DNA of 18,725 bases from an uncultured Anaerolineaceae bacterium (GTDB lineage: Bacteria; Chloroflexota; Anaerolineae; Aggregatilineales; Phototrophicaceae). The notes beneath the pieces were generated by a model. It was given only the letters and a program-made list of their open reading frames with translations. It did not search any database and had not been told where the DNA came from. The DNA lies in NCBI GenBank assembly GCA_964417785.1, contig CAYQJO010000067.1:1-18725 (forward strand), in the 5' to 3' direction. Of the stretch, positions 6,082 through 13,460 are shown piece after piece. Every line of letters begins with the position of its first letter. The first letter of the stretch is position 1. A program made the position numbers and the translations under genes.

Positions 6082-7041
6082 TTGATCTATTTGATACGAA
6101 CATTGATCGGTGCATACGGTCTGGGTGTTCTGGGTGTTCTGGGTGGCCGGATTGTCATCGGGGAAACCTGGACCGTTATCGCGTTCTTCAATGCCATCCT
6201 CGATCTGGTGTTGTTTCCGTCACTGGTACTGCTGCCGCTGGCATTGCTGCTGCGCCAGCGCTTCGTCGCGACGTTGATGCTGCCACCGATTCTGGCCCTG
6301 GTTGGCTGGTATGCGCCGCTGCTGGTCGTCAGTGGGTCAGTACAATCAGCGGAAGATGCCGCCAGTCGTCTGTCGCTGGTGAGCTATAACGTCAACGGTC
6401 ATAACGACGACTTTGAAGCGATTGCCACCGTCCTGCGAGAGATGAACGCCGATGTGGTGGTGTTGCAGGAGTTGGGGCCGGCGCTGGCGGATTATCTGCT
6501 GGCCGCTATCGGCGATGACTATCCCTTCAACACGTTACAGGTCAATGTGCGCCATGCCATATACGGTGAAGGGGTTCTCAGCCGCCACGAGATTGTTGAA
6601 TCCAGCACATGGATGGGCGAACTGGGCGGCAACCAGCGGGTGTTGATCCAGGTAGGCGATGGACAGGTGGCGGTCTACAACATCCATGCAGCCTACCCGT
6701 TTGTGGTCGGTGGTTTCGACAGCCGCCGCCGTGATGTCTCCACAATCCTCGAACTGGCTGCTGCTGAAACGGTGCCGGTCATACTGGCTGGTGACTTCAA
6801 CCTGACGCCGCGCTCCGAGGACTATGATCGGCTGGTCAGCACGTATGTCGATGTCCACGCAGCGGTCGGCAGTGGTTTGGGTTATACCTTTACCCCGCGC
6901 TTCAGCCCGATCCCGCTGGCCCGCATTGATTATATCTTTGTCGATGAACGGCTGACACCGCTGCGAATTCGCGTCGGTTCTGATACTGGCGGGTCCGATC
7001 ATTCTCCGGTATGGGTGACTATAACCGGCGAATCTGAATAA
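6082..7041 (+). CDS. Endonuclease/exonuclease/phosphatase (EEP) family protein with an N-terminal polytopic membrane anchor.
   Basis: The EEP motifs are LVSYNVNGHND, VVVLQELGP, ILAGDFNLTPRSEDYDRL and GGSDHSPVWVTI. About 90 N-terminal residues form 2-3 hydrophobic helices. The start is an alternative codon (TTG at 6082, with AAAGG upstream). A tandem GTGTTCTGG repeat lies at 6122-6143. Confidence 0.75.
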   Translation: MIYLIRTLIGAYGLGVLGVLGGRIVIGETWTVIAFFNAILDLVLFPSLVLLPLALLLRQRFVATLMLPPILALVGWYAPLLVVSGSVQSAEDAASRLSLVSYNVNGHNDDFEAIATVLREMNADVVVLQELGPALADYLLAAIGDDYPFNTLQVNVRHAIYGEGVLSRHEIVESSTWMGELGGNQRVLIQVGDGQVAVYNIHAAYPFVVGGFDSRRRDVSTILELAAAETVPVILAGDFNLTPRSEDYDRLVSTYVDVHAAVGSGLGYTFTPRFSPIPLARIDYIFVDERLTPLRIRVGSDTGGSDHSPVWVTITGESE

Positions 7042-7885
7042 AGTCGACTTTTGCCACGTTTTCGGCGCAGGTGTTGCGGGTGAAGATCATGATCTCCTCC
7101 GATAGTGGCACACCGGCAGGGCTGTACAACTGGACGTTATACTGCCCTTCGGTTGGAGTCCCACCCAGATTAAACTCGTAGCCGCCCGGACCCATCGCCA
7201 GCGCCGCCCCACTAAAAACCCGCACGGTAAGCCTGTCGGGGTCCTGCACATCGATGATCCGTATCGAGTAGTTGTCCAGTGCTTCCCCGTCCAACCCGCG
7301 CACGGTCCCGGCGATGCTGCTCCAGTTGCAGCCGCGCTCGTTGGTGTTGGTCGTATAAGTTACACCCGCTTCACTGACGGCGAACGGGTACAGCGTTTCG
7401 GGATCAACCGGCGTAGGCATGACGCTGGCCGTCGGTGTTTCAGTAGGAATGGGTGTGATATCACCCGCTGCTTCGGCGGTCAGGGTGACGAAATAGGTGG
7501 CGACGGCAGCAGCATCGGACGTCATGGATACCTCGATAAAGGGTGTGGGGGGCGCGAACGGATTCAGCGGCGTATAGTGGTCTTCGTAGATCAGCAGGTA
7601 ATAACGCGCCAGCGCTACCGTCGCAAGCAAGAAAAATACGGCCACCACATCATGTCGCCAGTTGCCCTGCCGCCGTTTGCGTTTTGGCGGGCGCTGGCGC
7701 GGACGCTTTTCCGGTTCCAGCGCGGGCAGGGGCGGGAAGCGCTCCTCCGGCGGGGTGTACTTCACCGGTACGACCGCGTCCTCTACCACCTCCACATCGT
7801 CAGGCCGGGTCAGACTCTCCTGGATTTCGTCCCAGTTCGGCTCGTCCTGCTCCGGCGGATTATTGCCACGACCGAACAATCTCAT
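7019..7885 (-). CDS. Membrane protein, paralog B. It has a Pro/Arg/Lys-rich cytoplasmic N-terminal region of about 75 aa, one transmembrane helix, a PT-rich linker and a roughly 115-aa two-cysteine C-terminal domain.
   Basis: The basic stretch RPRQRPPKRKRRQGNWRHD is followed by the transmembrane helix VVAVFFLLATVALARYYLLIY. The linker is PIPTETPTASVMPTPVDPET. The C-terminal domain (GCNWSSIAGTVRGLDGE ... NTCAENVAKVDFIQIRRL) aligns with the C-terminus of the upstream gene at 7882..8649. There is a 4-bp start/stop overlap with that gene. Confidence 0.7.
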   Translation of the reverse strand: MRLFGRGNNPPEQDEPNWDEIQESLTRPDDVEVVEDAVVPVKYTPPEERFPPLPALEPEKRPRQRPPKRKRRQGNWRHDVVAVFFLLATVALARYYLLIYEDHYTPLNPFAPPTPFIEVSMTSDAAAVATYFVTLTAEAAGDITPIPTETPTASVMPTPVDPETLYPFAVSEAGVTYTTNTNERGCNWSSIAGTVRGLDGEALDNYSIRIIDVQDPDRLTVRVFSGAALAMGPGGYEFNLGGTPTEGQYNVQLYSPAGVPLSEEIMIFTRNTCAENVAKVDFIQIRRL

Positions 7886-8649
7886 GGGCGATCACGGGTC
7901 TGGATGAAGCGTAAGATGGCGACATTACCGTTGCAATCTCCGGGGAAGGCCACCTGGATTTCCGGTGACAGCGCTGTTCCCAGAGACGTTTCCAGACGGA
8001 CGAAATAGACCTGCTGGTTGATGGTATCCGCCACTTTGACCTCAAAGCCAGAGCGTGCGCCATACAACGAGTTTGATCCGGTTGGTTGTTTGGTGTCAAT
8101 GAAATCGTTGTAGACATGAATCTGGTACACCTGTTCCGTCTCCTGTCCGTCCACGCCCAGCACATTGCCCCCGATCCCCTGCCACGCGCAGCCAGCCGCG
8201 TTGGCGGTGTTGGGATTGAAGAGAATGTCATCACGCAGGGTGAACAGGAAGGGGTTGTCCGTCGGTGTAAATGTCAATGTCGGGCCAACGGGTGTGGCCG
8301 TGTCAGTGGCGGTCGGGCTGGCCGACGGGGTGAAGGTCGCTGAAGGTGTGGGCGTCGGTCCCGGTGTTTCGGTAATGGTCGGTGAGGGTGTGACCGACTG
8401 GGTTTCGGTGGGTACTTCGGTGAAGGTCGGTGTATTGGACGGCGTGAGAGTGGCTGTGGGGGTTTCGCTTGGTGTGACGGTGAAGGTCGGTGTCGCTGAT
8501 GGCAACACGATTCCCGTTGGCAGCGGCAGCGCCGCCACCTCATCTTGCTGCTCAGGGCCGAGCAGACGGACGACCACAAACACCAGCATCAAAGCTGACA
8601 GGGTGACAAAGACCAGACTGATGATGTCGTAAACGCGGGCAGTGTTCAT
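7882..8649 (-). CDS. Membrane protein, paralog A. It has a short N-terminus, one transmembrane helix, a long PT-rich linker and a two-cysteine C-terminal domain.
   Basis: The transmembrane helix is IISLVFVTLSALMLVFVVVRLL. The linker (TPTFTVTPSETPTATLTPSNTPTFTEVPTET...) is about 100 aa. The C-terminal domain (GCAWQGIGGNVLGVDGQE ... CNGNVAILRFIQTRDRP) is homologous to that of 7019..7885. Confidence 0.7.
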   Translation of the reverse strand: MNTARVYDIISLVFVTLSALMLVFVVVRLLGPEQQDEVAALPLPTGIVLPSATPTFTVTPSETPTATLTPSNTPTFTEVPTETQSVTPSPTITETPGPTPTPSATFTPSASPTATDTATPVGPTLTFTPTDNPFLFTLRDDILFNPNTANAAGCAWQGIGGNVLGVDGQETEQVYQIHVYNDFIDTKQPTGSNSLYGARSGFEVKVADTINQQVYFVRLETSLGTALSPEIQVAFPGDCNGNVAILRFIQTRDRP

Positions 8650-8654
8650 CAGGG

Positions 8655-8756
8655 CTAGACCAGTTGAAAAACGACAAATAGAACCCAGAAAAAGGACAGC
8701 ACCAGAAACGTGATTGAAATCATGTTGTAGATGCGGGCGTTGCCTGTTCCAAGCAT
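8655..8756 (-). CDS. Micro-ORF of 33 aa (MLGTGNARIYNMISITFLVLSFFWVLFVVFQLV). A single transmembrane helix, homologous to the N-terminal anchor of the downstream paralog A.
   Basis: A strong AGGAG ribosome-binding site lies 7 nt upstream of the ATG. It begins 9 nt after the PPIase stop codon and ends 5 nt before the ATG of 7882..8649. The sequence NARIYNMISITFLVLSFFWVLFVVFQL is similar to TARVYDIISLVFVTLSALMLVFVVVRL of the next gene. Confidence 0.4.
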   Translation of the reverse strand: MLGTGNARIYNMISITFLVLSFFWVLFVVFQLV

Positions 8757-8765
8757 GGCGAGCTC

Positions 8766-9665
8766 CTAATTGATATAGCGCTCGATAGTGGCAGTTTCCC
8801 GGCGTGAATCCAGCCAGGTGATGAATTGATCGATGTTTTGCTGCACGCGCTCCTGGTCGGAGACTTCGCGCTGGCCGGCTTCGAGCGTTTCGACAATATG
8901 ATAACCGAGCATAGTTTGTACTGGCCCGGTCCGTTCGCCCGGATTGAGCGAAAACGCGACTTGCGTCAGTTCCGGTGTCAGCAGGTCATCGCGGTCGAAC
9001 CAGCCCAGATCACCGCCCTGGTCGCGGGTGGTCACATCCAGTGAATACTCCGCCGCCAGCACCGCGAAATCCTCGCCAGCAGCCAGACGGGCAAAGACCT
9101 CGCGGGCTTCGTCCTCAGTCTCCACCAGGATATGGCGGGCACGGACCTGCTCAACCGGGCCACTGGTTGGTTGAATGATCTCCATTTGAAGGCGTTGGGT
9201 AATCAGGGTATCGGGCAGCGTGTCCAGATATTCCTGCTCATTTGCGAACTGGTTGGCAGATAGCCAATTCTGCCATGCGCTGTCGTCCGGCAGTGCCGCC
9301 CGTGCCTGCTCGTATTCAGACTGAATATCGGCGTCGCTGATGGTGATTCCCATCTCGGCAGCGGCCTGATTGATGATGGCCTGCTCAATCAGTGTGTTCA
9401 GCACCAGACTCGCAACAGCGTCATAACTGGCCCCATTCTGTTGGCGGCGATCAAATGCCCGCTGGAATTCGTTCAATGTGATGGCTTCGCCGTTGACCCG
9501 GGCGACCAGTTGCTCGCCGTCGTTGTTCAACGGTAGGGCCGGTTCGGCGGTGGTTTGAATGGTAGCAGTGGGTTGTGGTGCAGTGGTCGCCGGTGCATCA
9601 TCACCATCAGATGAACAGGCAGCAGCCAACAATAACACCAGAATCCCAATGAATACGCGATACAT
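8766..9665 (-). CDS. Parvulin-type (PpiC) peptidyl-prolyl cis-trans isomerase with a SurA/PrsA-like N-terminal chaperone region. A probable lipoprotein or secreted foldase.
   Basis: The rotamase motifs are ARHILV, GGDLGWF and GYHIVE. The ATG at 9665 is preceded by AAGGA and followed by the signal peptide MYRVFIGILVLLLAAAC. The longer ORF to 9842 has no ribosome-binding site. Confidence 0.8.
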   Translation of the reverse strand: MYRVFIGILVLLLAAACSSDGDDAPATTAPQPTATIQTTAEPALPLNNDGEQLVARVNGEAITLNEFQRAFDRRQQNGASYDAVASLVLNTLIEQAIINQAAAEMGITISDADIQSEYEQARAALPDDSAWQNWLSANQFANEQEYLDTLPDTLITQRLQMEIIQPTSGPVEQVRARHILVETEDEAREVFARLAAGEDFAVLAAEYSLDVTTRDQGGDLGWFDRDDLLTPELTQVAFSLNPGERTGPVQTMLGYHIVETLEAGQREVSDQERVQQNIDQFITWLDSRRETATIERYIN

Positions 9666-9970
9666 ACCTATCCTTAAACGTCGATCTCTGGCGCATATTA
9701 TGCGACCAGCATCAGATAATCGCAAGTGGCACACCTGACAGAGATTGAACCACGCCATTTCAATGGCAGTGGTTTCTCGTTTTGTATCGGGTATAGACGG
9801 GCAAAACACGCCATCATCAGGCGTTTTTGTGCTATACTTCACTGTGGCGGTCGCTCAGACAAATCTCTCTGAAGTGTTGGCCGTGATGGAAGTTAATGGC
9901 GTCAACCGAGGCTCAGGCCCAGATCGACGCCTGAAACGCGGACGAATAACCTTATTAAGGAGAAGTATTA

Positions 9971-10905: not shown

Positions 10906-11712
10906 TTAATTGCTGCTGACCGAAGCCGGCTGTGGATCACGGAAGCGGCGAGCATCATCGAGTTCTACCTCTGTCTCCGCCTCTGACTTGGCCCGCGCAA
11001 TGCTGTAGATCAATACGCCATAGCCACACTTGGCCGCCACATCAGCGATGCAGTAACCAACCTGGATGGCGATCAACGCGGTTGCACCTTCAACGCCGAG
11101 GATCGGCAGGAGATAGACCATCGGGTAAAAGCCCCAGGTGGCGAAGAGGAGCAGCCGAGCGTTGCGTACCAGCACTTTAGCCTCACCGGGCTGGCGATCA
11201 ATCGCTTCGCCAAGCTGGGAAAACAGCGCATACAGGATGTAAAGGAAGGGCAGGGTGCTGATGAAGCCCCACAGGGCGCGGGTACCGTTATCCGGTGCGA
11301 TCTCGCCCGGATAGCCCAGGATGACCATCGCAGCAGCAGCCAGACCCAGACGGAAAGTCATCTTGGCGGCCTGCGCACGCGGCAGCGTCAGCACGGCCAC
11401 CAGTTCAGCCACCAGCAGCGGCACGGTCAGCAGCCAATCGACGTAGCGATAGGCGTCGTTAAATGGTTCTCCGCTGGCAACGTAGGTGCCGTCCTGCAAG
11501 ACATAAGCACCAGCCCAACTCTCAAAAATGCGAAAATAGTGGTAACCGGCTACGGCCACAACCAGCGCCGACATCACCAGCGCCCCGCGATACTTCGGGG
11601 CAACATCCTGGCGCTTCAGCACGAAGAAGATGAATGACGCGAACATGGCCGCAAAGGTGAAAGAGAAAGCGTTGTAGACCAGACTGTACTGATCGGGGGT
11701 AAGTTCTACCAT
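10906..11712 (-). CDS. Microbial (type I) rhodopsin, a proteorhodopsin/xanthorhodopsin-family light-driven proton pump with a DTE motif.
   Basis: Helix C reads RYVDWLLTVPLLVAEL (Asp, Thr, Glu at the BR85/89/96 positions). Helix G reads IADVAAKCGYG, carrying the Schiff-base lysine. Helix F reads WGFYP. Helix E reads LWGFIST, with Gly at the bacteriorhodopsin Trp138 position, as in xanthorhodopsin/Gloeobacter rhodopsin. Helix B carries His in GYHYF. Seven hydrophobic helices are present. The start is ATG 11712 or GTG 11715. Confidence 0.9.
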   Translation of the reverse strand: MVELTPDQYSLVYNAFSFTFAAMFASFIFFVLKRQDVAPKYRGALVMSALVVAVAGYHYFRIFESWAGAYVLQDGTYVASGEPFNDAYRYVDWLLTVPLLVAELVAVLTLPRAQAAKMTFRLGLAAAAMVILGYPGEIAPDNGTRALWGFISTLPFLYILYALFSQLGEAIDRQPGEAKVLVRNARLLLFATWGFYPMVYLLPILGVEGATALIAIQVGYCIADVAAKCGYGVLIYSIARAKSEAETEVELDDARRFRDPQPASVSSN

Positions 11713-11715
11713 CAC

Positions 11716-11990: not shown

Positions 11991-13460
11991 TTATGCCGGA
12001 GTCTCGTCGTCCTCTTCCGGCAGGATGGGCGGTCGTTCAACTGGCGCTGTACCGTTTTCCATCTTGATCGCGTTGAACATCTCCGATATTTTCACCAGCG
12101 TCTCCTGGAAGTCGTCACCAGTCAGTGCCTCAACTTTGGTGGTGAACATATCCGCCACCTGCGGGATGTTCAGCAGCATATCCAGGAAGGTATTGCCGGT
12201 AACGCCGTGACCGTTGCCCCCGCCAAAATCGACGATGCGAACGTTGCCACCAAGACCGGCCAGGGCCTGGGCGATGGCTTCCGCCTTGGCGATGTCGGCT
12301 CTGGTGAGCTGCTCGACCACGTACTGGCGCAGGTTGATCTCACCCTCGGCAGCACTGGCGGCGGCGATTTCGCGCCGGCCTTCGGCTTCCGCCAGGAGTT
12401 TGGCGCGTTCACCTTCGGCTTCCGCCAGGAATTGTGCTCGCATACCCTCAGCCTCGGCTTTGTTGCCTTCGGCTTCTGCCTGCTTCATGGCTTTCAGCGC
12501 GTCTGCGTCGGCTTGCGCTTTCTCGCGGATGGCGCGGGCCTGAGCTTCAGCTTCGATCTCAATACGGCGGCGTTCGGCTTCGGCGCGGATTTCAGTCGCC
12601 TGGCGCGACGCCCGGGCCGGGACCAGCACCTCGGCTTCCTGCTGCTGCTCGACGGCCAGTGCCTTGCGCTTCTGCACTTCCTGACCGCTGTCGGCTTCGG
12701 CCAATCCCACCTGGCGGTTGACCTCGACCTCACGCAGCTTCAGCGCTTCGCGTTGCGCCAGAATCTCACGCTGCGCGTCCAGTTCGGCCTGTTCCGCTGC
12801 TTGCAGCGCTTCGGCGGCCTTGACTCGCGCCTGACGGTCGGCTTCCGCTTCGGCGATGGCGGCGTCACGCTTAACGGCAGCGATTTGTGGGGCGGCCATC
12901 GCTTGTAGATAGCCTTGCTCGTCGGTGATCTCCTCGATACCCATCGAGATGACCTTGACACCCATCGCGGCCACATCGTCCGACGCCAGTTCCTGCACTT
13001 TCTGGACGAAGCTGTCGCGGTCGCGGTGGATGGCTTCAACCGACATCTGCCCGACGATGGCGCGGAAGTTGGCGCTCAGGGTTTCCTCAATAACCCGGCG
13101 GACTTCATCTGAGGACTTGTCGAGAAAAGCACGGGTAGCGGTGCGCAGCGCCGATTCTTCGCTGTCGATCTGGACCTGGGCCACCCAGTCTAACTGGATC
13201 GGTACGCCGCTCTCAGTATAGACCTCATCCTTCTCGGTCTTGATCGTCATGATGGTGATGTCGAGCAGCTTGTAGCTCTCAATCACCGGCCATACAAAGA
13301 CACCACCGTTCGTCACCAGCCGCGATTGTCCGCGACCGAAAACAACCATGACCTTGCTCGGCGGAACTTTATGATAATAGCGTGTAATAAAAGCGATGAG
13401 TGCCGTGAGCAGCACCACCGCCCCGACAACAACGATGATCCATTCAAAACCACCTTCCAT
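11991..13460 (-). CDS. floT: Flotillin (SPFH/band-7 domain, FloT/YuaG-like) with a long Ala/Glu-rich coiled-coil region.
   Basis: It has an N-terminal transmembrane helix and the SPFH domain (VFVWPVIESYKLLDITIMTI...). The EA-rich repeats (AEAEADRQARVKAAEALQAAEQAELDAQ...) are characteristic of flotillins. An AGGAG ribosome-binding site is present. It starts 10 nt after the stop codon of the nfeD-like gene. Confidence 0.88.
   Translation of the reverse strand: MEGGFEWIIVVVGAVVLLTALIAFITRYYHKVPPSKVMVVFGRGQSRLVTNGGVFVWPVIESYKLLDITIMTIKTEKDEVYTESGVPIQLDWVAQVQIDSEESALRTATRAFLDKSSDEVRRVIEETLSANFRAIVGQMSVEAIHRDRDSFVQKVQELASDDVAAMGVKVISMGIEEITDEQGYLQAMAAPQIAAVKRDAAIAEAEADRQARVKAAEALQAAEQAELDAQREILAQREALKLREVEVNRQVGLAEADSGQEVQKRKALAVEQQQEAEVLVPARASRQATEIRAEAERRRIEIEAEAQARAIREKAQADADALKAMKQAEAEGNKAEAEGMRAQFLAEAEGERAKLLAEAEGRREIAAASAAEGEINLRQYVVEQLTRADIAKAEAIAQALAGLGGNVRIVDFGGGNGHGVTGNTFLDMLLNIPQVADMFTTKVEALTGDDFQETLVKISEMFNAIKMENGTAPVERPPILPEEDDETPA

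Follow-up and report, generated by a model that had tools for sequence, protein, structure and literature searches.

Bacterial small membrane proteins are often encoded in the operon of their partner and act through contacts within the membrane (PMC12648545). In the pairs UgtS-UgtL, MgtR-MgtC, KdpF-KdpABC, CydX-CydAB, AcrZ-AcrB and MgrB-PhoQ, the small protein has about 30-40 aa and a single transmembrane helix (PMC12648545). Another class of small regulator is found in eukaryotes, where microProteins such as LITTLE ZIPPER and Id are soluble regulators of transcription-factor dimers, with titration having been demonstrated (PMC9638782, PMC7584889).

Annotation routinely overlooks small membrane proteins or labels them 'hypothetical', and for most of them the origin has yet to be traced. 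We analyzed a stretch of 18,725 nucleotides (the window), which contains an operon on the minus strand with a very short ORF, hereafter the micro-ORF, located between a gene for a prolyl isomerase and a gene for a membrane protein of 255 aa (P255). The features of this region are as follows:

9665..8766, minus strand: gene for a PrsA/SurA-like parvulin prolyl isomerase, the first of the operon; 299 aa, lipoprotein-type signal (..LLAAAC), Pfam Rotamase and SurA_N_2/3
8767..8763, minus strand: Shine-Dalgarno-like AGGAG, 6 nt (CTCGCC) before the micro-ORF ATG, overlapping the isomerase TAG stop (8768..8766)
8756..8655, minus strand: micro-ORF, 33 codons, ATG at 8756, TAG stop at 8657..8655
8654..8650, minus strand: spacer of 5 nt between the micro-ORF stop and the P255 ATG
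8649..7882, minus strand: P255, 255 aa, type II membrane protein; an N-terminal anchor and a Pro/Thr-rich linker precede a beta-sandwich at the C-terminus, in which two Cys are invariant
7885..7019, minus strand: P288, 288 aa; a cytoplasmic extension at the N-terminus precedes an anchor related to that of P255, and the C-terminal domain is of the P255 type; the start codon and the stop of P255 overlap (ATGA)
6082..7041, plus strand: gene of the endonuclease/exonuclease/phosphatase family (Pfam Exo_endo_phos on an identical contig)

The micro-ORF product is MLGTGNARIYNMISITFLVLSFFWVLFVVFQLV (33 aa, translated from the minus strand). It has a short basic N-terminus (MLGTGNAR), followed by the motif IYN-xIS-xxF and a transmembrane helix of about 20 residues, after which the stop codon is reached. 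We predict a single-pass small membrane protein that would insert with its N-terminus in the cytoplasm and with almost no residues outside the membrane.

A first-pass annotation of this DNA had described an ORF of 33 codons, preceded by AGGAG and ending 5 nt before the next ATG, whose product parallels the N-terminus of the next gene. All of these elements are present on the minus strand, and the spacing of the ribosome-binding site, given there as 7 nt, is the same feature counted in another way. The parallel is also borne out: an ungapped alignment of the micro-peptide with P255 residues 4-30 has 12/27 residues identical and 21/27 positive (BLASTP E 3e-7, single comparison). Moreover, an N-terminal profile of 26 P255 orthologs matches the micro-ORF with an E value of 2.6e-11 among the six-frame fragments of all loci. 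Since the micro-ORF and the P255 anchor are only about 55% identical in DNA within the window, the resemblance has been kept at the protein level. None of the parent's other domains is retained: there is neither linker nor beta-sandwich, and across 32 loci the micro-peptide ends 0-8 residues past the helix.

This arrangement shares features with both of the described classes. As with the plant and animal microProteins, the micro-peptide is a small, single-module relative of a larger multi-domain protein whose functional domain is gone (PMC9638782, PMC7584889). It likewise keeps the module that probably mediates association, and would have originated by partial duplication or truncation of the parent. 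In contrast to the eukaryotic cases, this is a bacterial gene that shares an operon with its parent, and the module it keeps is a transmembrane helix. In size and in its single helix the micro-peptide is like UgtS, MgtR, KdpF and the others, but none of the cases looked for in the review is described there as a paralog of its partner's membrane segment (PMC12648545). There is also no sequence relation to UgtS, MgtR, KdpF, CydX, AcrZ or MgrB: the micro-ORF family has no match in Pfam or NCBIfam and carries no database name. The micro-ORF appears to resemble UgtS, MgtR and KdpF in function and the eukaryotic microProteins in origin, and by sequence it is a member of neither. A limited literature search found no described case of an anchor-only paralog in bacteria, and the micro-ORF may represent a rare bacterial mini-protein derived from a larger neighbour.

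The two proteins encoded downstream are themselves poorly described. P255 has 305 homologs, in Anaerolineae, and corresponds to no family in Pfam or NCBIfam. In its AF2 model, residues 3-30 form a helix, the Pro/Thr-rich linker of about 100 residues is disordered, and a beta-sandwich is modelled with confidence at residues 131-255. A Foldseek comparison with the PDB gave only weak matches for the sandwich, all to folds of a generic kind (transthyretin-like, CBM41 and carboxypeptidase-regulatory; best E 3e-3). P288 is a paralog of P255 in the C-terminal domain (31% identity, E 4e-14). Three P255 homologs (P0099, P0110 and P0111) are longer, with 322-332 aa, and carry bacterial SH3 domains (PF08239), accompanied in P0099 and P0110 by PF06347. 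Bacterial SH3 domains are often cell-wall binding, and these homologs may hint at an envelope role for the P255 family. The isomerase also matches the PrsA-type models of NCBIfam, below their cut-offs. Its longest ORF (8766..9842, minus strand) would start with GTG at 9842 and encode 358 aa, whereas gene callers take the ATG at 9665; the product from that ATG has the lipoprotein-type signal (MYRVFIGILVLLLAAAC), and a promoter-like site at 9725..9697 fits the shorter form. At the other end of the operon, the 3' end of P288 overlaps by 23 nt (7019..7041) with the 3' end of the convergent endonuclease/exonuclease/phosphatase-family gene.

We then analyzed how widely the micro-ORF occurs, using 80 species-level orthologous loci obtained by a genome scan of Anaerolineae MAGs. 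The order isomerase, P255, P288 is preserved in almost all 80 loci, with the isomerase upstream of P255 in 74/80 and P288 present in nearly all. Detection relied on a profile of the first 36 alignment columns of the 26 P255 orthologs, run against six-frame fragments. An intact anchor-only ORF was located directly upstream of P255 in 31/80 loci; together with two metagenomic relatives and the window, this gives 34 loci with an intact micro-ORF. In all 32 loci of the first group (the 31 plus the window) the length is 32-37 codons. The start codon is ATG in 28/32 and GTG in 4/32, and a purine-rich, Shine-Dalgarno-like motif (at least 4 nt, at most 20 nt upstream of the start) precedes it in 28/32. 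The consensus of the peptides reads ..G..R-I-Y-N-x-I-S-x-x-F-L-x-L-S......V-I-x-R-L-L-G-P-A, in which Asn, Ser, Phe and one Val are invariant. All carriers are uncultured MAGs. DNA matching the window is present in a Phototrophicaceae-type MAG (GCA_034437435.1) and in near-identical microbial-mat contigs, where the 33-aa ORF is called; overall, the micro-ORF is already called as a gene in six assemblies, annotated only as 'hypothetical protein'. The microbial-mat samples in which this genome occurs include ERR2407577/8 and JGI 3300012009. In two related loci (L060 4700..4804 and L076 4012..4122), the usual compact arrangement is disrupted: 154-202 nt separate the micro-ORF from P255, and no isomerase was found further upstream within the locus, but the micro-ORF is intact in both.

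The micro-peptides form a family of their own. The closest relative of most of them is another micro-peptide and not the adjoining long anchor. An exhaustive phmmer search with the micro-peptide against 1.84 billion representatives gave three significant matches, all of 33-35 aa, and no N-termini of long proteins; two of the three are new, closer metagenomic relatives (62-66% identical) in the same operon position.

About 60% of the orthologous loci are without the micro-ORF. In these, the junction between the isomerase and P255 is either tight (6-35 nt in most) or formed by a spacer free of remnants: no degraded copy was detected in loci without the ORF, and the 110-190-nt spacers of L009, L026, L036, L055, L059 and L084 hold no anchor-like frame. 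The operon of the cultured Phototrophicus methaneseepsis is among the loci without a micro-ORF, and the operon can therefore work without it. On a neighbour-joining tree of the isomerase and the P255 C-terminal domain, the carriers cluster by clade, with one large clade that includes two small loss groups and with several deeper carrier lineages, one of them represented by the window; two large clades lack the micro-ORF entirely. The first-pass annotation had held that absence of the ORF from orthologous loci would speak against it. Absence is indeed common, but because it follows clades, it indicates that some lineages can do without the micro-ORF and does not mark the ORF as spurious.

Does selection act on the peptide itself? 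Pooled over 11 phylogenetically independent sister pairs, the micro-ORF has a pN of 0.125 against a pS of 0.403, which corresponds to a dN/dS of 0.24 (Fisher p 3e-22). For comparison, dN/dS is 0.26 in the first 34 codons of P255, which encode the anchor, and 0.105 in the remainder of P255. Synonymous divergence in the micro-ORF (0.40) is below that of the rest of P255 (0.61), so that some constraint at the nucleotide level may add to the apparent conservation. The entropy at the three codon positions is 38.2/17.6/52.9, and synonymous divergence is saturated across loci (mean pairwise pS 0.67). When the window is compared with its nearest relatives, synonymous sites are close to saturation, and identity is 59-62% for the micro-peptide, 41-44% for the P255 anchor and 43-55% for the other proteins of the operon. 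The micro-ORF is thus a coding, conserved sequence under purifying selection, homologous to the P255 anchor and constant in its position in the operon. We consider it very probable that the micro-ORF is a genuine, selected gene for a small membrane protein derived from its neighbour's anchor.

One TAG and three codons separate the micro-ORF from the isomerase gene in the window, and the two share a reading frame. An extension of either neighbour by read-through or frameshift was nevertheless rejected: the frame offsets across loci are random, with counts of 10/7/12 relative to the isomerase and 9/13/10 relative to P255, and the micro-ORF is therefore an independent cistron.

The conserved residues of the helix lie on one side. 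The periodicity of conservation along the helix is strongest at 100-102 degrees per residue, the angle expected if a single face of an alpha-helix is conserved, and this holds for the micro-peptides (permutation p 0.003), for the long anchors beside a micro-ORF (0.005) and for the long anchors without one (0.024). The positions conserved in both micro-peptides and long anchors are Y3, N4, S7, F10, L11, L13, S/T14 and V21, which give the helix-face motif Y-N..S..F...S/T......V, with Tyr-Asn at the cytoplasmic edge. The anchors of P288, the older paralog, share N-xx-[TAS]-xx-F-xxx-T, with Asn in 62/69, Phe in 62/69 and Thr in 56/69. A polar stripe of Asn, Ser and Thr on a transmembrane helix is an established driver of helix association. 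Thus, the anchors in P255 and P288 resemble modules for specific interaction, and what the micro-protein appears to retain is exactly that module, by itself. The shared face is compatible with a packing interface, and would be equally expected if each anchor bound another component of the membrane.

Tryptophan has a complementary distribution among these helices. Of the micro-peptides, 16/32 have a Trp in the helix; of the long anchors, 21/46 have one where the micro-ORF is missing and 0/32 where it is present next door (Fisher p about 1e-6, a figure uncorrected for shared ancestry). At the near-invariant Asn, the long anchors of the window carry Asp (P255 RVYD, 8620..8640; P288 RHD, about 7610..7640; both on the minus strand), and the micro-peptide keeps Asn. 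Covariation of this change from Asn to Asp was considered and rejected as evidence, as L030, L046, L070 and L079 have Asp in P288 yet Asn in P255.

Since the conserved helix face of the P255 and P288 anchors is also kept by the micro-peptide, it would most likely act by packing against other helices in the membrane. We hypothesize that the micro-protein either becomes an ectodomain-free member of the anchor bundle of P255 and P288, or fills the site of these anchors on a common partner; in both cases it would set the stoichiometry or the assembly of an envelope complex. Among the three readings put forward in the first-pass annotation (a small membrane protein pairing with the anchors of its paralogs, an upstream ORF that couples translation, or the remnant of a duplication), the first fits best. 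That the micro-protein packs against the P255 and P288 anchors themselves is the best-fitting interpretation, to which we give close to even odds, and both the binding partner and a regulatory effect are proposed on this basis. Taken as a whole, with the mechanism included, the statement that this is a genuine gene for a membrane protein of 32-37 aa, born from an old duplication of the anchor and acting by helix packing, has in our estimate a probability of roughly 0.5. A more elaborate version is doubtful: the anchor-only paralog would insert into, or cap, the helix bundle of the two parent-type envelope proteins and set the number of ectodomains per complex, as a membrane microProtein to which the Trp-bearing anchor was handed after the duplication.

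The main rival to helix packing with P255 and P288 is competition for a shared third partner. Here the micro-protein would bind a membrane factor that recognizes the anchors, such as an insertase, a protease that sheds ectodomains or the lipoprotein isomerase of the operon. A helix face common to all three anchors fits a shared external partner equally well, and the isomerase is strictly syntenic; however, it is predicted to be lipid-anchored rather than helix-anchored, and no candidate partner with a conserved membrane segment was found in the operon. We regard this competition as unlikely, though more probable than any alternative that follows. An upstream ORF for which only translation matters, delivering ribosomes to the P255 start while the peptide has no function, is considerably harder to reconcile with the data and seems improbable. 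The arrangement in the window would suit such an ORF, as would the short gaps in most loci (median about 14 nt, range -1 to 202 across the 32 loci). Against it, the gap reaches 81-202 nt in four loci, and where the micro-ORF is missing P255 follows the isomerase just as closely, so that coupling needs no extra ORF. The tight length range, the four invariant residues and the purifying selection also argue that the amino-acid sequence matters: it is conserved at least as well as the P255 anchor. Hence translational coupling, the second of the earlier readings, does not stand as the sole role and survives as a likely added property: since only 5 nt separate the two genes and no Shine-Dalgarno-like motif occurs in the 20 nt preceding the P255 start in the window, translation of P255 is likely coupled to the micro-ORF by termination and reinitiation.

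Control of downstream translation could also depend on membrane targeting, as in the leader peptides MifM, SecM and VemP, which monitor insertion. The micro-ORF resembles them in being an upstream ORF with a targeting segment, similar to that of the downstream protein, placed directly before a gene it could influence. In contrast to them, it has no arrest segment, is too short for sensing during translation and has no structure that sequesters a Shine-Dalgarno sequence. The peptide ends so soon after its helix in all 32 loci (0-8 residues) that there is no room for an arrest motif and the helix would still be in the ribosome tunnel at termination. Nor did folding of 8600..8790 (minus strand) reveal RNA structure beyond chance: the MFE is -41.7 kcal/mol, and shuffled sequences average -42.7 (z 0.23). 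An RNA element was rejected on this value, and no terminator-like site occurs between the genes. A monitoring leader is thus very improbable. Most improbable of all are two further explanations. One is that the ORF is the decaying remnant of a recent tandem duplication, the third of the earlier readings, or a chance ORF. It is very short and homologous to the adjacent 5' end, as a remnant would be, but 34 loci have it intact although their synonymous sites are saturated, its codon positions show a coding pattern, and the two copies in the window have diverged widely in DNA; we reject this reading. Purifying selection on the peptide is consistent neither with a decaying scar nor with an upstream ORF of irrelevant sequence. 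The other is a hydrophobic peptide akin to type I toxins, a class that the micro-peptide resembles in size and hydrophobicity. It is instead encoded inside a conserved operon and shares its ancestry with a structural anchor, and a consensus scan found no promoter-like site near the micro-ORF on either strand that would point to an antisense RNA.

Returning to the gene derived from the P255 anchor, our model proposes that an anchor-only paralog arose long ago, when the 5' end of the adjacent P255-type gene was copied in tandem; this partial copy would then have been inherited vertically, with some losses, as a separate cistron between the isomerase and P255. One old duplication followed by vertical descent with losses would be the simplest history; the micro-ORF may also have had several origins, as the marker of 26 residues is too short to discriminate. 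Some loci without a micro-ORF have a P255 N-terminus that is micro-like: L009 (1640..1730) begins with MLGEG, and L026, L036 and L042 have Ser for Thr at core position 14. Such anchors may hint that the micro-ORF can be lost when the two anchor copies recombine into a single hybrid.

For this small membrane protein, the probable origin can be read from the sequence, as a partial duplication of the neighbour's anchor that selection has preserved in a broad range of Anaerolineae. If the protein pairs with its parent anchors, regulation by truncated paralogs, as in eukaryotic transcription factors, would also operate between bacterial transmembrane helices, and a rule for finding more such genes would follow: search for a short ORF homologous to the adjoining anchor. 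The pattern would also mark the anchors of an uncharacterized operon, encoding a PrsA-like isomerase and two envelope proteins, as specific interaction modules and not as passive tethers.

Beyond the operon, the window contains a Band_7/flotillin-like gene (489 aa; 11991..13460, minus strand), which follows a gene of 177 aa with a faint NfeD_TM match on an identical contig. NfeD and flotillin are a common gene pair, with no relation to the micro-ORF finding. A microbial rhodopsin gene (10906..11715, minus strand; Pfam Bac_rhodopsin on an identical contig) lies about 2 kb from the operon. By eye, its helix-C region reads D-xxx-T-xxxxxx-E, as in proton pumps of the proteorhodopsin/xanthorhodopsin type.
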